Shown: piece after piece, positions 8,483-23,913 of the stretch | How positions within the stretch are numbered: position 1 is the first letter of the stretch | How the letters are laid out: every line of letters begins with the position of its first letter | Origin: a virus | Virus genome (UHGV): UHGV-0029496 | Reading direction: 5' to 3' (one strand) | DNA: 24,034 nucleotides | Position numbers and translations under genes: made by a program | Notes under the pieces: generated by a model | The model's input: only the letters and a program-made list of their open reading frames with translations | Databases searched by the model: none | Told to the model about the DNA's origin: nothing

Positions 8483-8516
8483 ATTCTAGCACACTACTTG
8501 CACACCCCAATATAAT
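8483..8516. promoter_or_regulatory. Divergent promoter candidates in the 164-bp gap between the chaperone gene (minus) and the plus-strand cassette
   Basis: Plus strand: perfect TATAAT at 8511-8516, about 40 nt before ATG 8555, weak -35. Minus strand: TAGAAT (plus 8483-8488) with TTGGGG 16 nt upstream. Confidence 0.25.
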
Positions 8517-8554
8517 AGGGTACTATTCACCTGTAACTTACTGAGGAAATAATT

Positions 8555-10992: not shown

Positions 10993-11016
10993 AAGGCCCC
11001 TTTCGGGGCCTTTTCC
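10993..11016. terminator. Bidirectional rho-independent terminator between convergent genes
   Basis: aaggcccc-tttc-ggggcctt followed by ttttcc on the plus strand; also U-rich on the minus strand. Sits between the plus HNH stop (10991) and the minus major tail stop (11017). Confidence 0.7.
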
Positions 11017-15101: not shown

Positions 15102-16154
15102 TTAAGCCCCGACACCAGTTACCAGGAAGGCAATCGGTACATGCTTACGCTCAACCACACGGTTCCAGTTGGAGGCGTTCGCCAGGTCCTGCCAGGAAGC
15201 AGAGCGGGCGATAGTCTCGGTGCCGTTACCGGTGATTACCGCACTGGTGAAGCTGTAACCAAACGGATGCAGCAACCAGGTCTTACGGGTCCACAGGGTT
15301 TCAACGCCACCACCGTTACCGCGAGACGCTTCGCGCTCGTATTCCAGCGGGTTAGACGGAGAACCTTCACCATAACCAATAGCGCCGTTGCCGAAGATAA
15401 TGGAGATGAACTTACGGCTAGGGCCAGTACCGACTACGGTCATGCTGTCGTCAACAATCACACGGTAGCCCTGGTAGGTGGCGAACATGGTGTTGTTATC
15501 GGCATCGCGGATGAAGTCGATAAGCTGCTGCTTACGCGCCTGTGCATAAACGAAACTGTGCATCGCGATAGCGCCCAGTACTTCACCGCCGTTACCCATC
15601 AGAGCATCGCCCATGGTCTGGGTAGCGTCGATGAATGCGCCCGCGTCGAAGCCCAGAGTCGCGGACACGTCTACTACCATGTCGTTCTGCACGTGGTAAG
15701 CATCGGTAGCGGTTACGTTGTTGTTGTACAGACCTAGCGCAGTAGCAATCAGACGGCGTTGTGCCTGACGCTGCCAGAAGTTATCCAGACGAGAAGCCAC
15801 GGATTGCAGCGGGTTCTGGCTGGTCAGTTCTACAGTCAGGTCAGCCTGTCCAAAGCCTTCGTTCAGGTAAGCTACACGAACGTCCATCTCACCGGTTTGC
15901 ACGTTACGAGGGGTGGCGATGTCCTGATATACGTCGTTCGAGTAGTTCGGCTCGATAGAGGTATCAATCGCTTTCCAGTACGGCAGAACAGCTTTGTTGG
16001 ACGGGCCGTTAGCGATAGCCGCTGCGTACGGAGTCGGGGTCAGAATACCGGACTGGAAGAACGCGGTTTTCTCTACCGGGTCTTCTGTCATGTAAGACAG
16101 AATGACCGATTCTTTACCAGTTACGATGTCGCCGATAGTAGTAATTGCCATCAT
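15102..16154 (-). CDS. Major capsid protein
   Basis: 350 aa directly after the scaffold gene, followed by decoration gene and terminator; GAGGAAAA SD; start overlaps scaffold stop (ATGATGA). Confidence 0.8.
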   Translation of the reverse strand: MMAITTIGDIVTGKESVILSYMTEDPVEKTAFFQSGILTPTPYAAAIANGPSNKAVLPYWKAIDTSIEPNYSNDVYQDIATPRNVQTGEMDVRVAYLNEGFGQADLTVELTSQNPLQSVASRLDNFWQRQAQRRLIATALGLYNNNVTATDAYHVQNDMVVDVSATLGFDAGAFIDATQTMGDALMGNGGEVLGAIAMHSFVYAQARKQQLIDFIRDADNNTMFATYQGYRVIVDDSMTVVGTGPSRKFISIIFGNGAIGYGEGSPSNPLEYEREASRGNGGGVETLWTRKTWLLHPFGYSFTSAVITGNGTETIARSASWQDLANASNWNRVVERKHVPIAFLVTGVGA

Positions 16155-16855
16155 TTTTTCCTCAGGGCTTTAAGTTGCCGTTCAAATTCGGCAGGGTTCG
16201 ATTCGTACAGAGCGATACGCTCCGCTTCACTCATGTCTTTAAACGCTGGTGCGGCCCCGCCACCTTTGCTACCGGAAGCCCCGCCGCCGGAAGCTGCATT
16301 TGCTTTAATCAAATGCGAAAACGCTTTGTGTTCGCGCAGATATTTGCGGAACTGTTCCGGGTCAGTCGTGATTACATTGCCATCTGCACCAACAAACTTA
16401 GTAACCACATCATCGCCTTCGAACTCAGTCTTAACGAACGGCGCAAGAATGTCTACTGCTTCCGGGGTGATAAAGTCGCCCGCGAAAGAGCCTAACACCG
16501 CTTTACGTTCGCTGCCGAGGATGCGCTCTGCCATTTTGGAGATGCGGCCATCTTTCTCGGCTAACACCGGGTCATACTGGCTACGAATCGTCTTTTCGAA
16601 CTCGTCCATCTTACCGGCGGCTTTTAACGCCTCCTGGTGCGCGCGCTGCCGTTCTTCTTCGGCCTCTTTTGCTTTACGAGCGGCTTCTTTCTTCTCCGCC
16701 AGCAATGCTTCCTGATTAGCCTTAAGCCCGGCAACTTCTTTCTCGATCAGCGCCTGAACTTCTTCGGCGGTGAACATTTTCGGCGCGTCACCGCCGCCAG
16801 ATTTATCTTCTGCCCCAGCTTCTTCCTGGAACGGATAACGTAAAAAACGATTCAT
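16151..16855 (-). CDS. Capsid scaffolding protein
   Basis: Charged Ala/Glu/Lys-rich coiled-coil sequence (EEVQALIEKEVAGLKANQEALLAEKKEAARKAKEAEEERQRAHQEALKAAGK) directly upstream of the capsid gene. Track start is TTG 16909; first ATG is 16855. Confidence 0.7.
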   Translation of the reverse strand: MNRFLRYPFQEEAGAEDKSGGGDAPKMFTAEEVQALIEKEVAGLKANQEALLAEKKEAARKAKEAEEERQRAHQEALKAAGKMDEFEKTIRSQYDPVLAEKDGRISKMAERILGSERKAVLGSFAGDFITPEAVDILAPFVKTEFEGDDVVTKFVGADGNVITTDPEQFRKYLREHKAFSHLIKANAASGGGASGSKGGGAAPAFKDMSEAERIALYESNPAEFERQLKALRKK

Positions 16856-16909
16856 AGTCAGTATGTCCCCTGGACTTTGGAACCCGGGCCACCCGGATTT
16901 ACATGTCAA

Positions 16910-16928
16910 GAATAAATTATTCCAACAT
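16910..16928 (-). repeat. Copy A of a repeated intergenic motif (minus orientation ATGTTGGAATAAnnTATTC) abutting a TTGACA hexamer
   Basis: 12/12 identical core (ttattccaacat, plus 16917-16928) and 17/19 over the extended motif with copy B at 17692-17710. Confidence 0.5.
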
Positions 16929-16937
16929 GCAAGGCAA

Positions 16938-17201
16938 CTATTCCAGAATATTCCTCACGTAATCCTGCAACATGAACACTTTCAGTCTCAGTTGCCGTAC
17001 GCATTCGGCGTTCTGAACATCAATAGCCAAATCCTCGTCTGTGTCGCTACTTGGCGCGGCCAGTTTGCACGGCGGCTGCATCATCGTCGTATCCGGGGAT
17101 GGAATTGGCGTTTGCGACGGCGCGGGACTTGAGCTGCACGCGCTCAGGGTCAAAAGTGCACACGCTGCGACCAGGCGTTTTAATGTACTTAACGACTTCA
17201 C
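16938..17201 (-). CDS. o-spanin (Rz1-like outer-membrane lipoprotein)
   Basis: GTG start with GAGGT SD; signal peptide plus perfect lipobox LSAC; Pro-rich mature part (CSSSPAPSQTPIPSPD); starts inside the Rz-like ORF in another frame and extends past its stop. Confidence 0.55.
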   Translation of the reverse strand: MKSLSTLKRLVAACALLTLSACSSSPAPSQTPIPSPDTTMMQPPCKLAAPSSDTDEDLAIDVQNAECVRQLRLKVFMLQDYVRNILE

Positions 17202-17433
17202 GGGTAATTACCTCTGATTTCGTCTTGCCTTCGTTGTCAGCGGCTGCGGCCTTTGATTCGTCCTGCTGCTGCCGTTGTGTTTTCTTCGCCAGCTCGGCCT
17301 GCGCTTTCTGCTGTTGCTGCGAAACGAGATTAGCCCGGCCTTCGTTCCACCCTTGAAGATAGTTGTATTTCCCGTAAGCGAAAACGAGAAACGCGGAACA
17401 TGCCGTGGTTATGATTGCTGCTTTAAGATTCAT
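17047..17433 (-). CDS. i-spanin (Rz-like)
   Basis: AAGGAG SD; N-terminal transmembrane segment AAIITTACSAFLVFAY followed by a Gln/Lys/Glu-rich coiled-coil region; overlapped by the lipoprotein ORF. Confidence 0.55.
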   Translation of the reverse strand: MNLKAAIITTACSAFLVFAYGKYNYLQGWNEGRANLVSQQQQKAQAELAKKTQRQQQDESKAAAADNEGKTKSEVITREVVKYIKTPGRSVCTFDPERVQLKSRAVANANSIPGYDDDAAAVQTGRAK

Positions 17434-17457
17434 GTTTCTCCTTTCTCGATAAGTAAA

Positions 17458-17477
17458 GCCCCGCCTTAAAGCGGGGC
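17458..17477 (-). promoter_or_regulatory. Hairpin in the 5' leader just upstream of the Rz-like RBS
   Basis: gccccgc-cttaaa-gcggggc (7-bp stem), followed on the minus strand by UUUACUUAUCG and then the SD. Confidence 0.35.
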
Positions 17478-17656
17478 GCTAGTCCTTATCATTTAAACAT
17501 AGAAACGGCGTAATCTCAGTAAACCAGTTACTTTTTACACAAGCAATAGACTATGGCCCTTCCGAACGCGTCAGCGACACTACACTCAGTGCTAACGCAC
17601 CGCTCCGTTCTCCTGCCGCGCCGCGGTCGCTTGTTCATACTTCACAAGCTCAGGTG

Positions 17657-17685
17657 GAGCTTATCATATTTTTAGTGAAAAGTCA
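17657..17685 (-). promoter_or_regulatory. Sigma70-like promoter candidate driving minus-strand genes
   Basis: Minus strand TTGACT (plus 17680-17685), 17-nt spacer, TGaTAAGCT extended -10 (plus 17657-17662). Confidence 0.3.
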
Positions 17686-17691
17686 ACTATT

Positions 17692-17710
17692 CGAATAGTT
17701 TATTCCAACA
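17692..17710 (-). repeat. Copy B of the repeated intergenic motif, 6 nt upstream of the TTGACT -35 candidate
   Basis: See copy A; core ttattccaacat at plus 17699-17710. Confidence 0.5.
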
Positions 17711-17744
17711 TTTACAATTGAGGGGAATAACTGGAATAATCACA

Positions 17745-17770
17745 GGCATTAAAAAGCCCCTTTCGGGGCT
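17745..17770 (-). terminator. Rho-independent terminator after the Ig-like gene
   Basis: aagcccc-tttc-ggggctt (7-bp stem) followed on the minus strand by UUUUAAUG; starts 6 nt after the stop codon. Confidence 0.7.
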
Positions 17771-17775
17771 TCAGT

Positions 17776-18237
17776 TTATTCCGGCTTAGTAACCTTCGCC
17801 GCTTTGCTTACGGCCTCTACACCATCGGCATCGGTGGCTTTAACGAAGTATTCACCGACTGCATTAACTGTCAGAGACAGAGCCTCTTCCGGGGCGTTTA
17901 CCACTTCCTTACCGTCTTTGTACCAGGTCAGAGCATACGGGGCTTTACCCGCCTTAACTTCGACAGTGATAGTCGCACTGCCGTCTGCCAGTTCAGCGTC
18001 TTTCGGCTGTACCGAGAAGTACACGTCACCTGCATTGACCAAATACGGAATCTCATAAACCATACCTGCCGCGGGTAACGCAATACCGGTCTTGTCAGCA
18101 AACGGCATATCGTCTACAGGCGAACCCAGTACACTTTCATCTTCAATAAACACCACGTTCTCACCAGAGCCAGACACACGGGCGTACTGGACTACGCGAC
18201 GCGACGGCACATCAGTTACTTTGAAAAAGCCCATCAT
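17776..18237 (-). CDS. Ig-like domain protein (minor capsid or decoration candidate)
   Basis: AAGGGG SD; ATGATG start overlaps the upstream stop; C-terminal Ig-type signature YALTWYKDGKEV. Confidence 0.5.
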   Translation of the reverse strand: MMGFFKVTDVPSRRVVQYARVSGSGENVVFIEDESVLGSPVDDMPFADKTGIALPAAGMVYEIPYLVNAGDVYFSVQPKDAELADGSATITVEVKAGKAPYALTWYKDGKEVVNAPEEALSLTVNAVGEYFVKATDADGVEAVSKAAKVTKPE

Positions 18238-19313
18238 TATTCCCCTTTCAGATAATCAGCAACACGTTTATCGAGTTCCGCCATCTGCTTAAGCGTGAGC
18301 GGATTCCCGAAACCATCTACAGATATTACGCGAAACTCTTCCGGCGATATACCGCTGTTGCGGAAAATCTTACCGCGGGTCGGTCCGAGTGCTTCATCCT
18401 GAAACCATGCTGGTTGTTGTTTCAGGAACTCGTAATAGGTTGTGTCCGCGCTTACCTGAGTACCCCCGTCTGCACCCTTAGCCGCACGTTTTGCACCTTT
18501 ATCGAGGAAGTCGAACTCGGAACTGATTACCGGGGCCGTGCACGATCGACAGTTCGGATGGGCTGGGGGCATTGGACCTTTACCGATTTCCCACGTCATC
18601 CCATCTCTGGCTCTGCAAATCGTACTGGTACGGCTGTCCAGCGTCGACACCCATTCGTACTTCTCGATGATGTCGTCGTTCTGGCGGTACGTCTCGTTAC
18701 GCGCTTCGTTGGACACGTGCGACAGCGCGGTGCGGATTACTGTAGCTGCGTTACGTTCAGAGATGTCGGCAAGCCCACCCGCACCAACAACATTCTTAAC
18801 AATCTGCCGTGTGGTTTGACCTTGTACAAAACCCATCTTAACACCGGTTACCAGGCGCGATACTTCTGTTTCCCCCCAGCCATCCATCAGCTTCGTGAAA
18901 TCAACAGGCTTGTCACTTAACGATAATGGCTGAAACTCGGCCGCGGCCCACACCTGTTCCGCGGTAGGTGTGACAAATTCCGCGTTAACGTTGGTGGTAA
19001 GTGTCTTTACGTTCCACTCGGCCTCATACGCCGCCAGTTCCTTAAGGTCTTCTGTCAGCTTCGTTTGCCAATCACCGGTAAGCCTGGTCAATGCTTCTTC
19101 CAGGTCGCGCAACAATTTATTCAGTCGCGCAGTGCTGCGCCCATCGTCGCCGAATAACAGCACCTGCCGTTTGATTTCATCTCGCATCTCCTGGATGAAC
19201 GGTGCGAGGTCTTTCACTTCACCGGATGCGGTGCGTTGTAGCCATATCTGGTGGCTGATTAGTGATGTCAGTAAGCTCATAGATAAACCCTGTGGCGCTA
19301 AAGTTAATAGCAT
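18237..19313 (-). CDS. Head morphogenesis protein (Mu gpF / SPP1 gp7-like)
   Basis: 358 aa immediately downstream of the portal gene; C-terminal conserved PMPPAHPNCRSC motif characteristic of Mu-F-like proteins. Confidence 0.8.
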   Translation of the reverse strand: MLLTLAPQGLSMSLLTSLISHQIWLQRTASGEVKDLAPFIQEMRDEIKRQVLLFGDDGRSTARLNKLLRDLEEALTRLTGDWQTKLTEDLKELAAYEAEWNVKTLTTNVNAEFVTPTAEQVWAAAEFQPLSLSDKPVDFTKLMDGWGETEVSRLVTGVKMGFVQGQTTRQIVKNVVGAGGLADISERNAATVIRTALSHVSNEARNETYRQNDDIIEKYEWVSTLDSRTSTICRARDGMTWEIGKGPMPPAHPNCRSCTAPVISSEFDFLDKGAKRAAKGADGGTQVSADTTYYEFLKQQPAWFQDEALGPTRGKIFRNSGISPEEFRVISVDGFGNPLTLKQMAELDKRVADYLKGE

Positions 19314-19314
19314 A

Positions 19315-19339
19315 CTATAAGAAAGCCCCTTTCGGGGCT
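19315..19339 (-). terminator. Hairpin between the portal and head morphogenesis genes (partial terminator or attenuator)
   Basis: agcccc-tttc-ggggct, the same 18-mer as at 17752-17769; followed on the minus strand by UUCUUAUAG. Confidence 0.4.
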
Positions 19340-23676: not shown

Positions 23677-23913
23677 TCATTCCCCACTCTCCTCTTTAGC
23701 AATACGTTGCTCAGTTTTAGTGATACCTCGGCGCGTGAATAATACCGGGCTTGTCTTAACGTGCGTCATCAGACGGTTGTTATAAATTACGTGGCGCTCG
23801 CAGTTCACGTCTTTGCTGTACTTCGCAATCGTCATTTCGTTGATGCCGGTTTGTCGGCATGTCTCGGCCATCGTACCAAATTCTTTAATCAGGTTCGGAA
23901 TGCTGGTAATCAT
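23677..23913 (-). CDS. Small HTH DNA-binding protein
   Basis: HTH-like segment TMAETCRQTGINEMTIAKY. Track start is GTG 23937; ATG 23913 forms an ATGA overlap with the stop of the upstream minus-strand frame. Confidence 0.55.
   Translation of the reverse strand: MITSIPNLIKEFGTMAETCRQTGINEMTIAKYSKDVNCERHVIYNNRLMTHVKTSPVLFTRRGITKTEQRIAKEESGE

Follow-up and report, generated by a model that had tools for sequence, protein, structure and literature searches.

A half-site cassette at two predicted promoters in a Kagunavirus late gene cluster as a candidate shared operator

Why should a virulent phage carry the same short sequence in two gaps of its late gene cluster, each time beside hexamers that resemble a −35 element? 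The question arose from a preliminary description of the UHGV virus genome UHGV-0029496, a stretch of 24,034 nucleotides (nt) that is called here, at its full length, the window. A repeated 12-mer, extended to a motif of 19 base pairs (bp), had been noticed at two intergenic sites, one ahead of the scaffold and capsid genes (site 1) and one ahead of the spanin genes (site 2), and was ascribed to a shared regulator or an UP element. The window belongs to a Kagunavirus (Guernseyvirinae) whose structural genes are read from the minus strand; from 16000 to 18500 it shares about 92% identity with Kagunavirus genomes, ST20 and K1ind1 among them. What proved to be conserved at both sites is not the whole 12-mer, but the half-site TATTC(C)/GGAATA, arranged as GGAATA-N3-TATTC plus further half-sites. 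We read this half-site cassette, tentatively and with a probability of about 0.45, as an operator shared by both promoters and bound by a dimeric, sequence-specific regulator.

The repeated word and the conserved half-site

The repeats and half-sites discussed throughout are located as follows.

16917-16928, minus strand: first copy of the 12-mer (minus strand ATGTTGGAATAA), an exact match
17700-17711, minus strand: second copy of the 12-mer, an exact match
16910-16922, no strand assigned: inverted repeat of site 1, GAATAA-A-TTATTC (minus strand GAATAATTTATTC), overlapping the promoter spacer and −10 and identical in Kagunavirus, Jerseyvirus and Cornellvirus
16938-16954, minus strand: extra half-sites of site 1, GGAATATTCTGGAATAG, directly upstream of the site-1 −35 and overlapping the o-spanin stop codon
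17693-17705, no strand assigned: inverted repeat of site 2 (minus strand GAATA-AAC-TATTC), centred at about −48 from the predicted site-2 start
17724-17738, minus strand: direct repeat of site 2, TATTCC-AGT-TATTCC, 17 bp upstream of the palindrome, with 12/12 columns identical between the Kagunavirus and Jerseyvirus consensus
17687-17698, no strand assigned: a palindrome found in Kagunavirus only, CTATTCGAATAG, between the inverted repeat and the site-2 −35

The 12-mer TTATTCCAACAT does occur twice without a mismatch, the second copy lying at 17700-17711 rather than at 17699-17710 as first given, and the 19-mers GAATAAATTATTCCAACAT (from 16910) and GAATAGTTTATTCCAACAT (from 17693) agree at 17 of 19 positions. 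Both copies are intergenic and upstream of minus-strand genes. Taken alone, however, the pair is weak evidence, because the window holds eight comparable pairs: eight direct pairs match at 17/19 or better, several of them being terminator hairpins, against 0 to 3 in block shuffles. The caution that a single 12-mer repeat may be chance was well placed, as simple arithmetic leads one to expect about 17 repeated 12-mers in 24 kb; the word itself occurred at least twice in 1 of 100 shuffles, in a test that was post hoc for this word. Moreover, the ATGTT portion of the 12-mer is specific to Kagunavirus, and one Kagunavirus locus (L005) has a spacer of the Jerseyvirus type instead.

It is the half-site that sets these two gaps apart. 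Counted over stretches of 100 bp, TATTCC/GGAATA clusters nowhere in the window as densely as in these gaps, which have four and three copies, and a cluster of at least three copies arose in 1 of 300 shuffles. Raw counts of TTATTCC are inflated because three minus-strand genes (14483, 17776 and 18237 in the window) end in ...GGAATAA, a glutamate codon followed by a stop, which has nothing to do with the promoter sites. Each site consists of one inverted repeat, GAATA-N3-TATTC (13 bp), and two more half-sites 16-18 bp upstream. For comparison, 58 related loci were gathered by way of the scaffold protein, together with complete genomes of several genera. When the Kagunavirus consensus is set against that of Jerseyvirus, the half-site columns are identical in 22 of 22 cases, as against 17 of the 30 other columns from the direct repeat to the −35 (Fisher p=1.9e-4). 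The arms of the inverted repeat are conserved and its centre is free, reading ATT, AAC, CTT or AAT, as in an operator-type dyad; the 3-nt spacer of the site-2 palindrome alone takes the forms AAC, CTT and AAT across three genera, with all spacings fixed.

The cassette is also exclusive to these places. The complete genomes of K1ind1, SETP3 and FSL SP-031 have the palindrome and direct repeats at the two sites alone, save for one extra palindrome at the o-spanin ATG in FSL SP-031, and GAATA-N3-TATTC is absent from the genomes of Pantoea AH01, Serratia Eta and Klebsiella VLCpiS11a. The composite site-2 pattern was found in 47 of the 2.9 million contigs of IMG/VR, once in each; those at or near full length measure 40-48 kb, several others are short partial contigs, and every contig that could be cross-referenced belongs to this phage group. 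On sequence evidence, the repeat cassette is specific to one group of Guernseyvirinae. The extra palindrome at the o-spanin start is a third exact GAATAAATTATTC, which in spanin cassettes of the Cornellvirus type (L062 at 26069; L009, L045-L053) lies over the start codon of a separate o-spanin gene (ATGAATAAATTATTCCTG, reading MNKLFL), where it may be either a coding coincidence or a third operator.

Could the likeness nevertheless be accidental, or the DNA a linker kept merely as a recombination junction between gene modules? The eight pairs at 17/19 would be in keeping with this, and module breakpoints and insertions do cluster beside both sites. Yet short half-sites are kept amid variable linkers in three genera, at fixed spacing and nowhere else in genomes of 42 kb, whereas recombination linkers would be conserved as continuous blocks, and we consider such an origin scarcely probable. 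The two checks named in the preliminary description both came out in its favor, as the motif is conserved in relatives and extra copies in coding DNA, which were looked for, do not occur at a chance rate. The clustering of the half-sites, their conservation and their exclusivity across the genome exceed chance, and a functional repeat is the better account.

The scaffold/capsid promoter and its leader

The features of site 1 and the genes downstream of it are listed next.

16932-16937, minus strand: −35 TTGCCT, 17 bp from the −10, with TTGC invariant in 21 sequences from 6 lineages
16909-16914, minus strand: −10 TATTCT, with T-TAT invariant and TATTCT or TATATT in all lineages; predicted start near 16902
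16916-16924, minus strand: overlapping alternative extended −10, TGGAATAAT, within the spacer
16904-16909, minus strand: TTGACA of the preliminary description, between the −10 and the predicted start, not a −35
16865-16899, minus strand: leader of the scaffold messenger RNA (mRNA), with hairpin 1 at 16881-16899 and a ribosome-binding-site hairpin at 16865-16875, both with compensatory changes
16151-16855, minus strand: head scaffolding gene, downstream of site 1
15102-16154, minus strand: major capsid gene, following the scaffolding gene

An alignment of 21 sequences from six lineages brought out the promoter within which the first copy lies. The first eight bases of the spacer differ among the lineages while both hexamers and their spacing stay, and TTGCCT-N17-TATTCT has both the expected hexamer spacing and the A at position 2 and T at position 6 of the −10. 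It scores 8/12, under the promoter-scan threshold of 9/12, and was therefore recognised by reading the sequence. Given this conserved promoter, the 19-mer at site 1 amounts to the spacer and −10 of the scaffold/capsid promoter, and an UP element is excluded there since the motif is the spacer and −10 itself. The motif does not occupy equivalent promoter positions at the two sites: it spans about −29 to −11 at site 1, but about −60 to −42 at site 2.

These positions bear directly on the original proposal, in which each promoter has the 19-bp site of an UP element or a regulator at a constant distance before its −35 (TTGACA or TTGACT). Both hexamers exist, TGTCAA at 16904-16909 and AGTCAA at 17681-17686 in plus-strand letters, and the TTGACT of site 2 does lie 17 bp from a −10 with the motif upstream. 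The claim of an equal position did not survive, however, as the hexamer abuts the motif at site 1 (an offset of 0 nt) and stands 6 nt away at site 2. The TTGACA of site 1 has no −10 partner 16-18 bp downstream and is not conserved, its counterpart being TTGTTA in Jerseyvirus and either TTTAGC or TTTTTA in lineages E and F, and the site-1 motif falls within the core promoter that is conserved. By reading, neither sequence is like the UP consensus, and conservation does not extend to the ATGTT part. For site 2 the position would suit an UP element, but TGTTGGAATAAACTATTCGAAT has neither A nor T tracts; the general UP-element consensus served for this comparison. The fixed-distance arrangement is therefore very unlikely, and of the two agents first suggested it is the shared regulator that gives the best reading, the UP element failing where the motif falls within the core promoter of site 1.

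Transcription from site 1 is predicted to begin near 16902, and the short leader that would result is structured, with a fold energy of −16.7 kcal/mol. Hairpin 1 begins 2-4 nt from the predicted 5' end, which is consistent with that start, and its outer pairs covary across lineages (TA, TG, AT, GC; AT, CG). The ribosome-binding-site hairpin shows a compensatory change of GUCC/GGAC to GACC/GGUC. Stabilising 5' stem-loops occur in other stable bacterial and phage mRNAs, and by analogy hairpin 1 would be a stabilising or protective 5' stem-loop of the scaffold mRNA. In Escherichia phage P AB-2017 (L123), the scaffold/capsid module has been swapped with a breakpoint exactly at the scaffold start codon, leaving the site-1 promoter and leader intact, and in lineage E repeats of TTGCA lie upstream of the scaffold gene.

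The spanin promoter and its surroundings

Site 2 has a longer and more elaborate setting, made up of these features.

17681-17686, minus strand: −35-like TTGACT, variable in relatives (TAGACT, TCGACT, TGGACT)
17658-17666, minus strand: extended −10, TGATAAGCT, of the form TGnTAnnCT at a fixed 17-bp spacing in three genera; predicted start near 17651
17711-17740, plus strand: antisense promoter-like TTTACA-N18-(TGg)AATAAT, from the promoter scan, built on the direct repeat
17434-17651, minus strand: noncoding leader, structured and about 215 nt long, separating the site-2 promoter from i-spanin
17458-17477, minus strand: intrinsic terminator (−17.2 kcal/mol, z=−2.0), 12 nt before the spanin ribosome-binding site
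17047-17433, minus strand: i-spanin with embedded o-spanin 16938-17201 (unit 16938-17433), downstream of site 2
17776-18237, minus strand: Hoc-like gene, upstream of site 2
17754-17771, minus strand: strong terminator of the Hoc-like gene, upstream of site 2

Three genera share one array of fixed spacing at site 2, in which TATTCC-N3-TATTCC is followed by a linker of 16-17 bp, GGAATA-N3-TATTC, N6, the −35, N17 ending in TGn and the −10 (TAAGCT, TACGCT or TAACCT). The extended −10 reads TGATAAGCT in Kagunavirus, TGTTACGCT in Jerseyvirus and TGATAACCT in Cornellvirus, each with TGn and with the A at position 2 and T at position 6. Transcription is predicted to begin near 17651, which places the centre of the palindrome near −48. 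With the terminator of the Hoc-like gene just upstream, site 2 appears to be a point of re-initiation. A reading of TGGAATAGTTGC as a sigma-54 promoter was rejected, as by reading its spacing is 3 nt too short for the consensus.

In minus-strand order the genes run portal, head morphogenesis, Hoc-like, a gap of 342 bp, i-/o-spanin, a gap of 82 bp, scaffold and major capsid. The claim that both copies sit ahead of their genes is borne out at site 1, but at site 2 the spanins are separated from the motif by the leader of about 215 nt and its terminator. RNAalifold gave this leader 36 pairs, nine of them changed on both sides, as expected of covarying helices, and indicated a possible pairing of the 5' end of the leader with the stretch just before the spanin ribosome-binding site. 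The leader could be a regulated attenuator of spanin expression. An open reading frame for 35 or 36 amino acids in the 17434-17775 gap, which one GenBank record lists as a hypothetical protein, was rejected as a gene because a 1-nt indel breaks the frame in many Kagunaviruses and Jerseyvirus has no ATG. Searches of the window and region found no transfer RNA, and Rfam, which was searched with the transcribed parts included, returned no match at the gathering score, the best sub-threshold E-value being 1.1. Terminator hairpins nearly identical to one another (AAAGCCCCTTTCGGGGCTT) recur between late genes at 17748-17771, 19317-19339 and 10993-11011, from which it follows that the late cluster is split into several units needing re-initiation or read-through.

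The gap between the Hoc-like gene and site 2 (17740-17775 in the window; loci L004-L061) is an insertion hotspot that measures 321 to 1590 bp in relatives, and the genes inserted there face leftward and carry a promoter of the PHIRE type about 25 nt from the direct repeat. Other lineages have other sequences in the place of the cassette. Lineage D and the mosaic locus L046 have an unrelated promoter cassette at the place of site 2, and lineages E and F have TTTGCGA(G/A) repeats upstream of the spanin gene, at the equivalent place (L055, L056, L061, L058, L059, L125). The repeats amount to five or six copies of TTTGCGAG and a perfect palindrome, ACTCGCAAAATTTTGCGAGT, in lineage E, and to the related TTTGCGAAA repeats in lineage F. 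As different cassettes stand at the same place, the position is conserved and the cassette exchangeable, which suggests exchangeable pairs of regulator and operator. One oddity was noted upstream of the spanin leader in L046, L050, L057 and L063, and at 8498-8516 in the window, where TTGACA or TTGCAC stands 7-8 bp before TATAAT, a spacing too close for a sigma-70 −35.

The antisense promoter-like sequence brings in a different explanation, by which the repeats are intrinsic to promoters and serve no dedicated regulator. The recurrence of GGAATA would then be due to TGGAATAAT acting as an extended −10, with a gene-strand copy at site 1 and an antisense copy at site 2, where leftward inserted genes could be driven; TATTCT would be a −10, and the remaining half-sites would be either AT-rich DNA lying upstream or degenerate copies of that promoter cassette. 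This accounts for site 1 and for some of the direct repeat. TGGAATAAT is present at site 1 in three genera, the scan finds the plus-strand TTTACA-N18-(TG)AATAAT at 17711-17740, and in Cornellvirus both copies of the direct repeat read TGGAATAAT antisense, with a leftward gene starting about 65 nt beyond the promoter-like site. The site-2 palindrome is left unexplained, however, being unusable as a −10 on either strand (in its left half the final T is missing in Kagunavirus and Cornellvirus, and TG in Jerseyvirus), yet conserved at 10/10 positions with a variable spacer. The same is true of the second copy of the direct repeat in Kagunavirus and Jerseyvirus, where it reads GGAATAAC antisense. 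Furthermore, the antisense −10 loses its final T in Kagunaviruses that bear an inserted gene (AATAAG, AATACG, AATAGG) while TATTCC persists, which weakens an antisense promoter as the sole reason for the direct repeat. We regard promoter-intrinsic elements as the chief rival to a shared operator, though a somewhat unlikely explanation of the cassette.

A candidate operator, its possible regulator and known systems

The shared operator remains the reading that we favor, because conserved arms flank a free centre, the sites occur at two promoters only, and two extra half-sites lie at a fixed distance. The half-sites are embedded in two predicted sigma-70-type promoters inside the late gene cluster, where a dimeric protein, probably phage-encoded, would recognise them and co-regulate both promoters. 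At site 1 the bound protein would occlude the −10, so that binding there would repress, and the scaffold/capsid transcript would start near 16902 with its protective 5' hairpin. At site 2 the place of the protein would be upstream, perhaps with a bridge to the direct repeat, and the promoter would re-initiate transcription after the Hoc-like terminator, passing through the structured leader and a leaky terminator into the spanin genes.

Several observations weigh against this operator. The palindromes lie at very different promoter positions, and a single regulatory logic is accordingly not obvious. At site 1 both palindrome halves can be explained as promoter elements, the TGGAATAAT extended −10 and the TATTCT −10; a Jerseyvirus variant (L034) has a broken half-site and keeps TGTAATAAT; and the lineages without GGAATA (D and F) keep a second −10-like hexamer in tandem within the spacer, the last two observations also favoring promoter-intrinsic elements. 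At site 2 one Kagunavirus (L016) has N4 spacing in the palindrome. Within Kagunavirus, finally, polymorphism at the half-sites is not significantly lower than at neighboring positions (p=0.15).

If a protein does bind the half-sites, it might instead belong to the E. coli or Salmonella host, whether as a transcription factor or as one of the nucleoid proteins, for example Fis, IHF or Lrp. The motif is found in E. coli and Salmonella phages and is absent in relatives infecting Pantoea, Serratia and Klebsiella, and the sites combine AT-richness with palindromic symmetry. However, host and phage phylogeny are fully confounded in this pattern, and by reading no G-N13-C frame of the Fis type exists at either site. 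No host factor with a TATTCC half-site is known to us, and of the consensus sequences of Fis, IHF, Lrp, CRP, Fur, Zur, IclR, RcsB, CpxR and DnaA, none fits convincingly, and no claim is made from them. A host protein is, on this evidence, improbable.

Among phage proteins, co-occurrence with the cassette points to one candidate.

23677-23913, minus strand: NinH-like helix-turn-helix protein of 78 amino acids, just upstream of the terminase genes

A screen of the K1ind1 open reading frames for those also present in SETP3 and FSL SP-031, but not in AH01, left three real genes, and the one predicted to bind DNA was this NinH-like protein. It belongs to PHROG 268, some close relatives have a precomputed match to PF06322, and it is absent from Pantoea AH01, Serratia Eta and Klebsiella VLCpiS11a. 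Over the IMG/VR contigs it tracks the cassette with one exception, a full-length Cornellvirus-like contig with the cassette and no NinH-like match in a search limited by peptide patterns. The AlphaFold model, with a mean predicted local distance difference test score (pLDDT) of 67, has an N-terminal three-helix bundle, and a sequence search of the PDB with the protein gave no match. That this Fis-mimicking protein binds GAATA-N3-TATTC, thereby timing or tuning scaffold/capsid and spanin expression, seems doubtful from the sequences at hand. Besides the exceptional contig, the co-occurrence is confounded by phylogeny and host; the match to Pfam Phage_NinH (PF06322; E=1.8e-4) reaches 21.8 bits, below the family cut-off of 29.8; and Foldseek returned only local helix-turn-helix matches to the model that were not significant. 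Lambda NinH prefers G-N13-C (PMC7166090), while the palindrome here is G-N11-C and no G-N13-C frame surrounds either palindrome. If the assignment were true, the NinH family, which even in lambda still has no known function, would gain a first defined regulon and a physiological role.

These sites matter beyond the window, as Kagunaviruses and Jerseyviruses are being widely isolated with phage therapy and food biocontrol in view, and their transcription programme is essentially unmapped. The promoters published for them are PHIRE or BPROM predictions, and the PHIRE lists consulted do not include the two sites. The literature search turned up no start-site mapping for Guernseyvirinae and no published description of the TATTCC cassette, and a Kagunavirus transcriptome (RNA-seq) paper gives coarse timing classes only (PMC12645636). 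The present analysis offers two testable internal promoters, a candidate operator common to the most abundantly needed head genes and the spanins, and a candidate regulator; should they be confirmed, the sites would offer a useful handle on expression to those who engineer these phages.

How does the cassette compare with systems already known? One comparison is with the PHIRE 'phage promoter' of the Kagunaviruses themselves, TAATAG-N4-CTATTCA (PMC9825357, PMC7203180), of which a genome has 5-7 copies, at most transcription-unit starts. The window has these copies.

8514-8530, plus strand: PHIRE motif, containing TATAAT
19305-19322, minus strand: weak copy of the PHIRE motif

Like the half-site cassette, the PHIRE motif is repeated, partly palindromic and intergenic, occurs in the same phages and contains a −10-like hexamer. 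It differs in sequence and in dyad spacing (AATAG-N4-CTATT) and has about seven copies that do not include the studied sites, neither of which matches it. The PHIRE dyad overlaps the −10 and start region, and may be another operator.

The Fis and lambda NinH sites, which are 15-bp pseudo-palindromes (PMC7166090), share with the cassette the form of a pseudo-palindrome for a small helix-turn-helix dimer, and a NinH-like gene co-occurs with the motif here. The outer G and C are 11 nt apart in the present case, not 13, and the local protein is a distant relative below the family threshold.

In phage Mu, Mor and C activate middle and late promoters from a dyad centred at −43.5. The site-2 dyad likewise lies just upstream of a weakly conserved −35, with its centre at about −48, some 4-5 bp further upstream. 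Unlike the Mor and C promoters, however, site 2 has a good extended −10 and may need no activation, and the site-1 dyad covers the −10, which is not known of any Mor or C promoter.

A more general likeness is to the lambda OR and OL operators of CI and Cro and to the N15 Cro operators. These, too, are short dyads with a variable centre, several to a control region, that overlap or flank sigma-70 hexamers, and the type of site differs by lineage at the same place. The sites described here have another sequence, GAATA-N3-TATTC of 13 bp; their place is not an immunity region, but the late structural cluster of a virulent phage; and they number two loci only and are known as candidate operators from their sequence. 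As we read it, the TATTCC cassette works like those phage operators that overlap core promoters, and is a fairly ordinary form of phage gene regulation.

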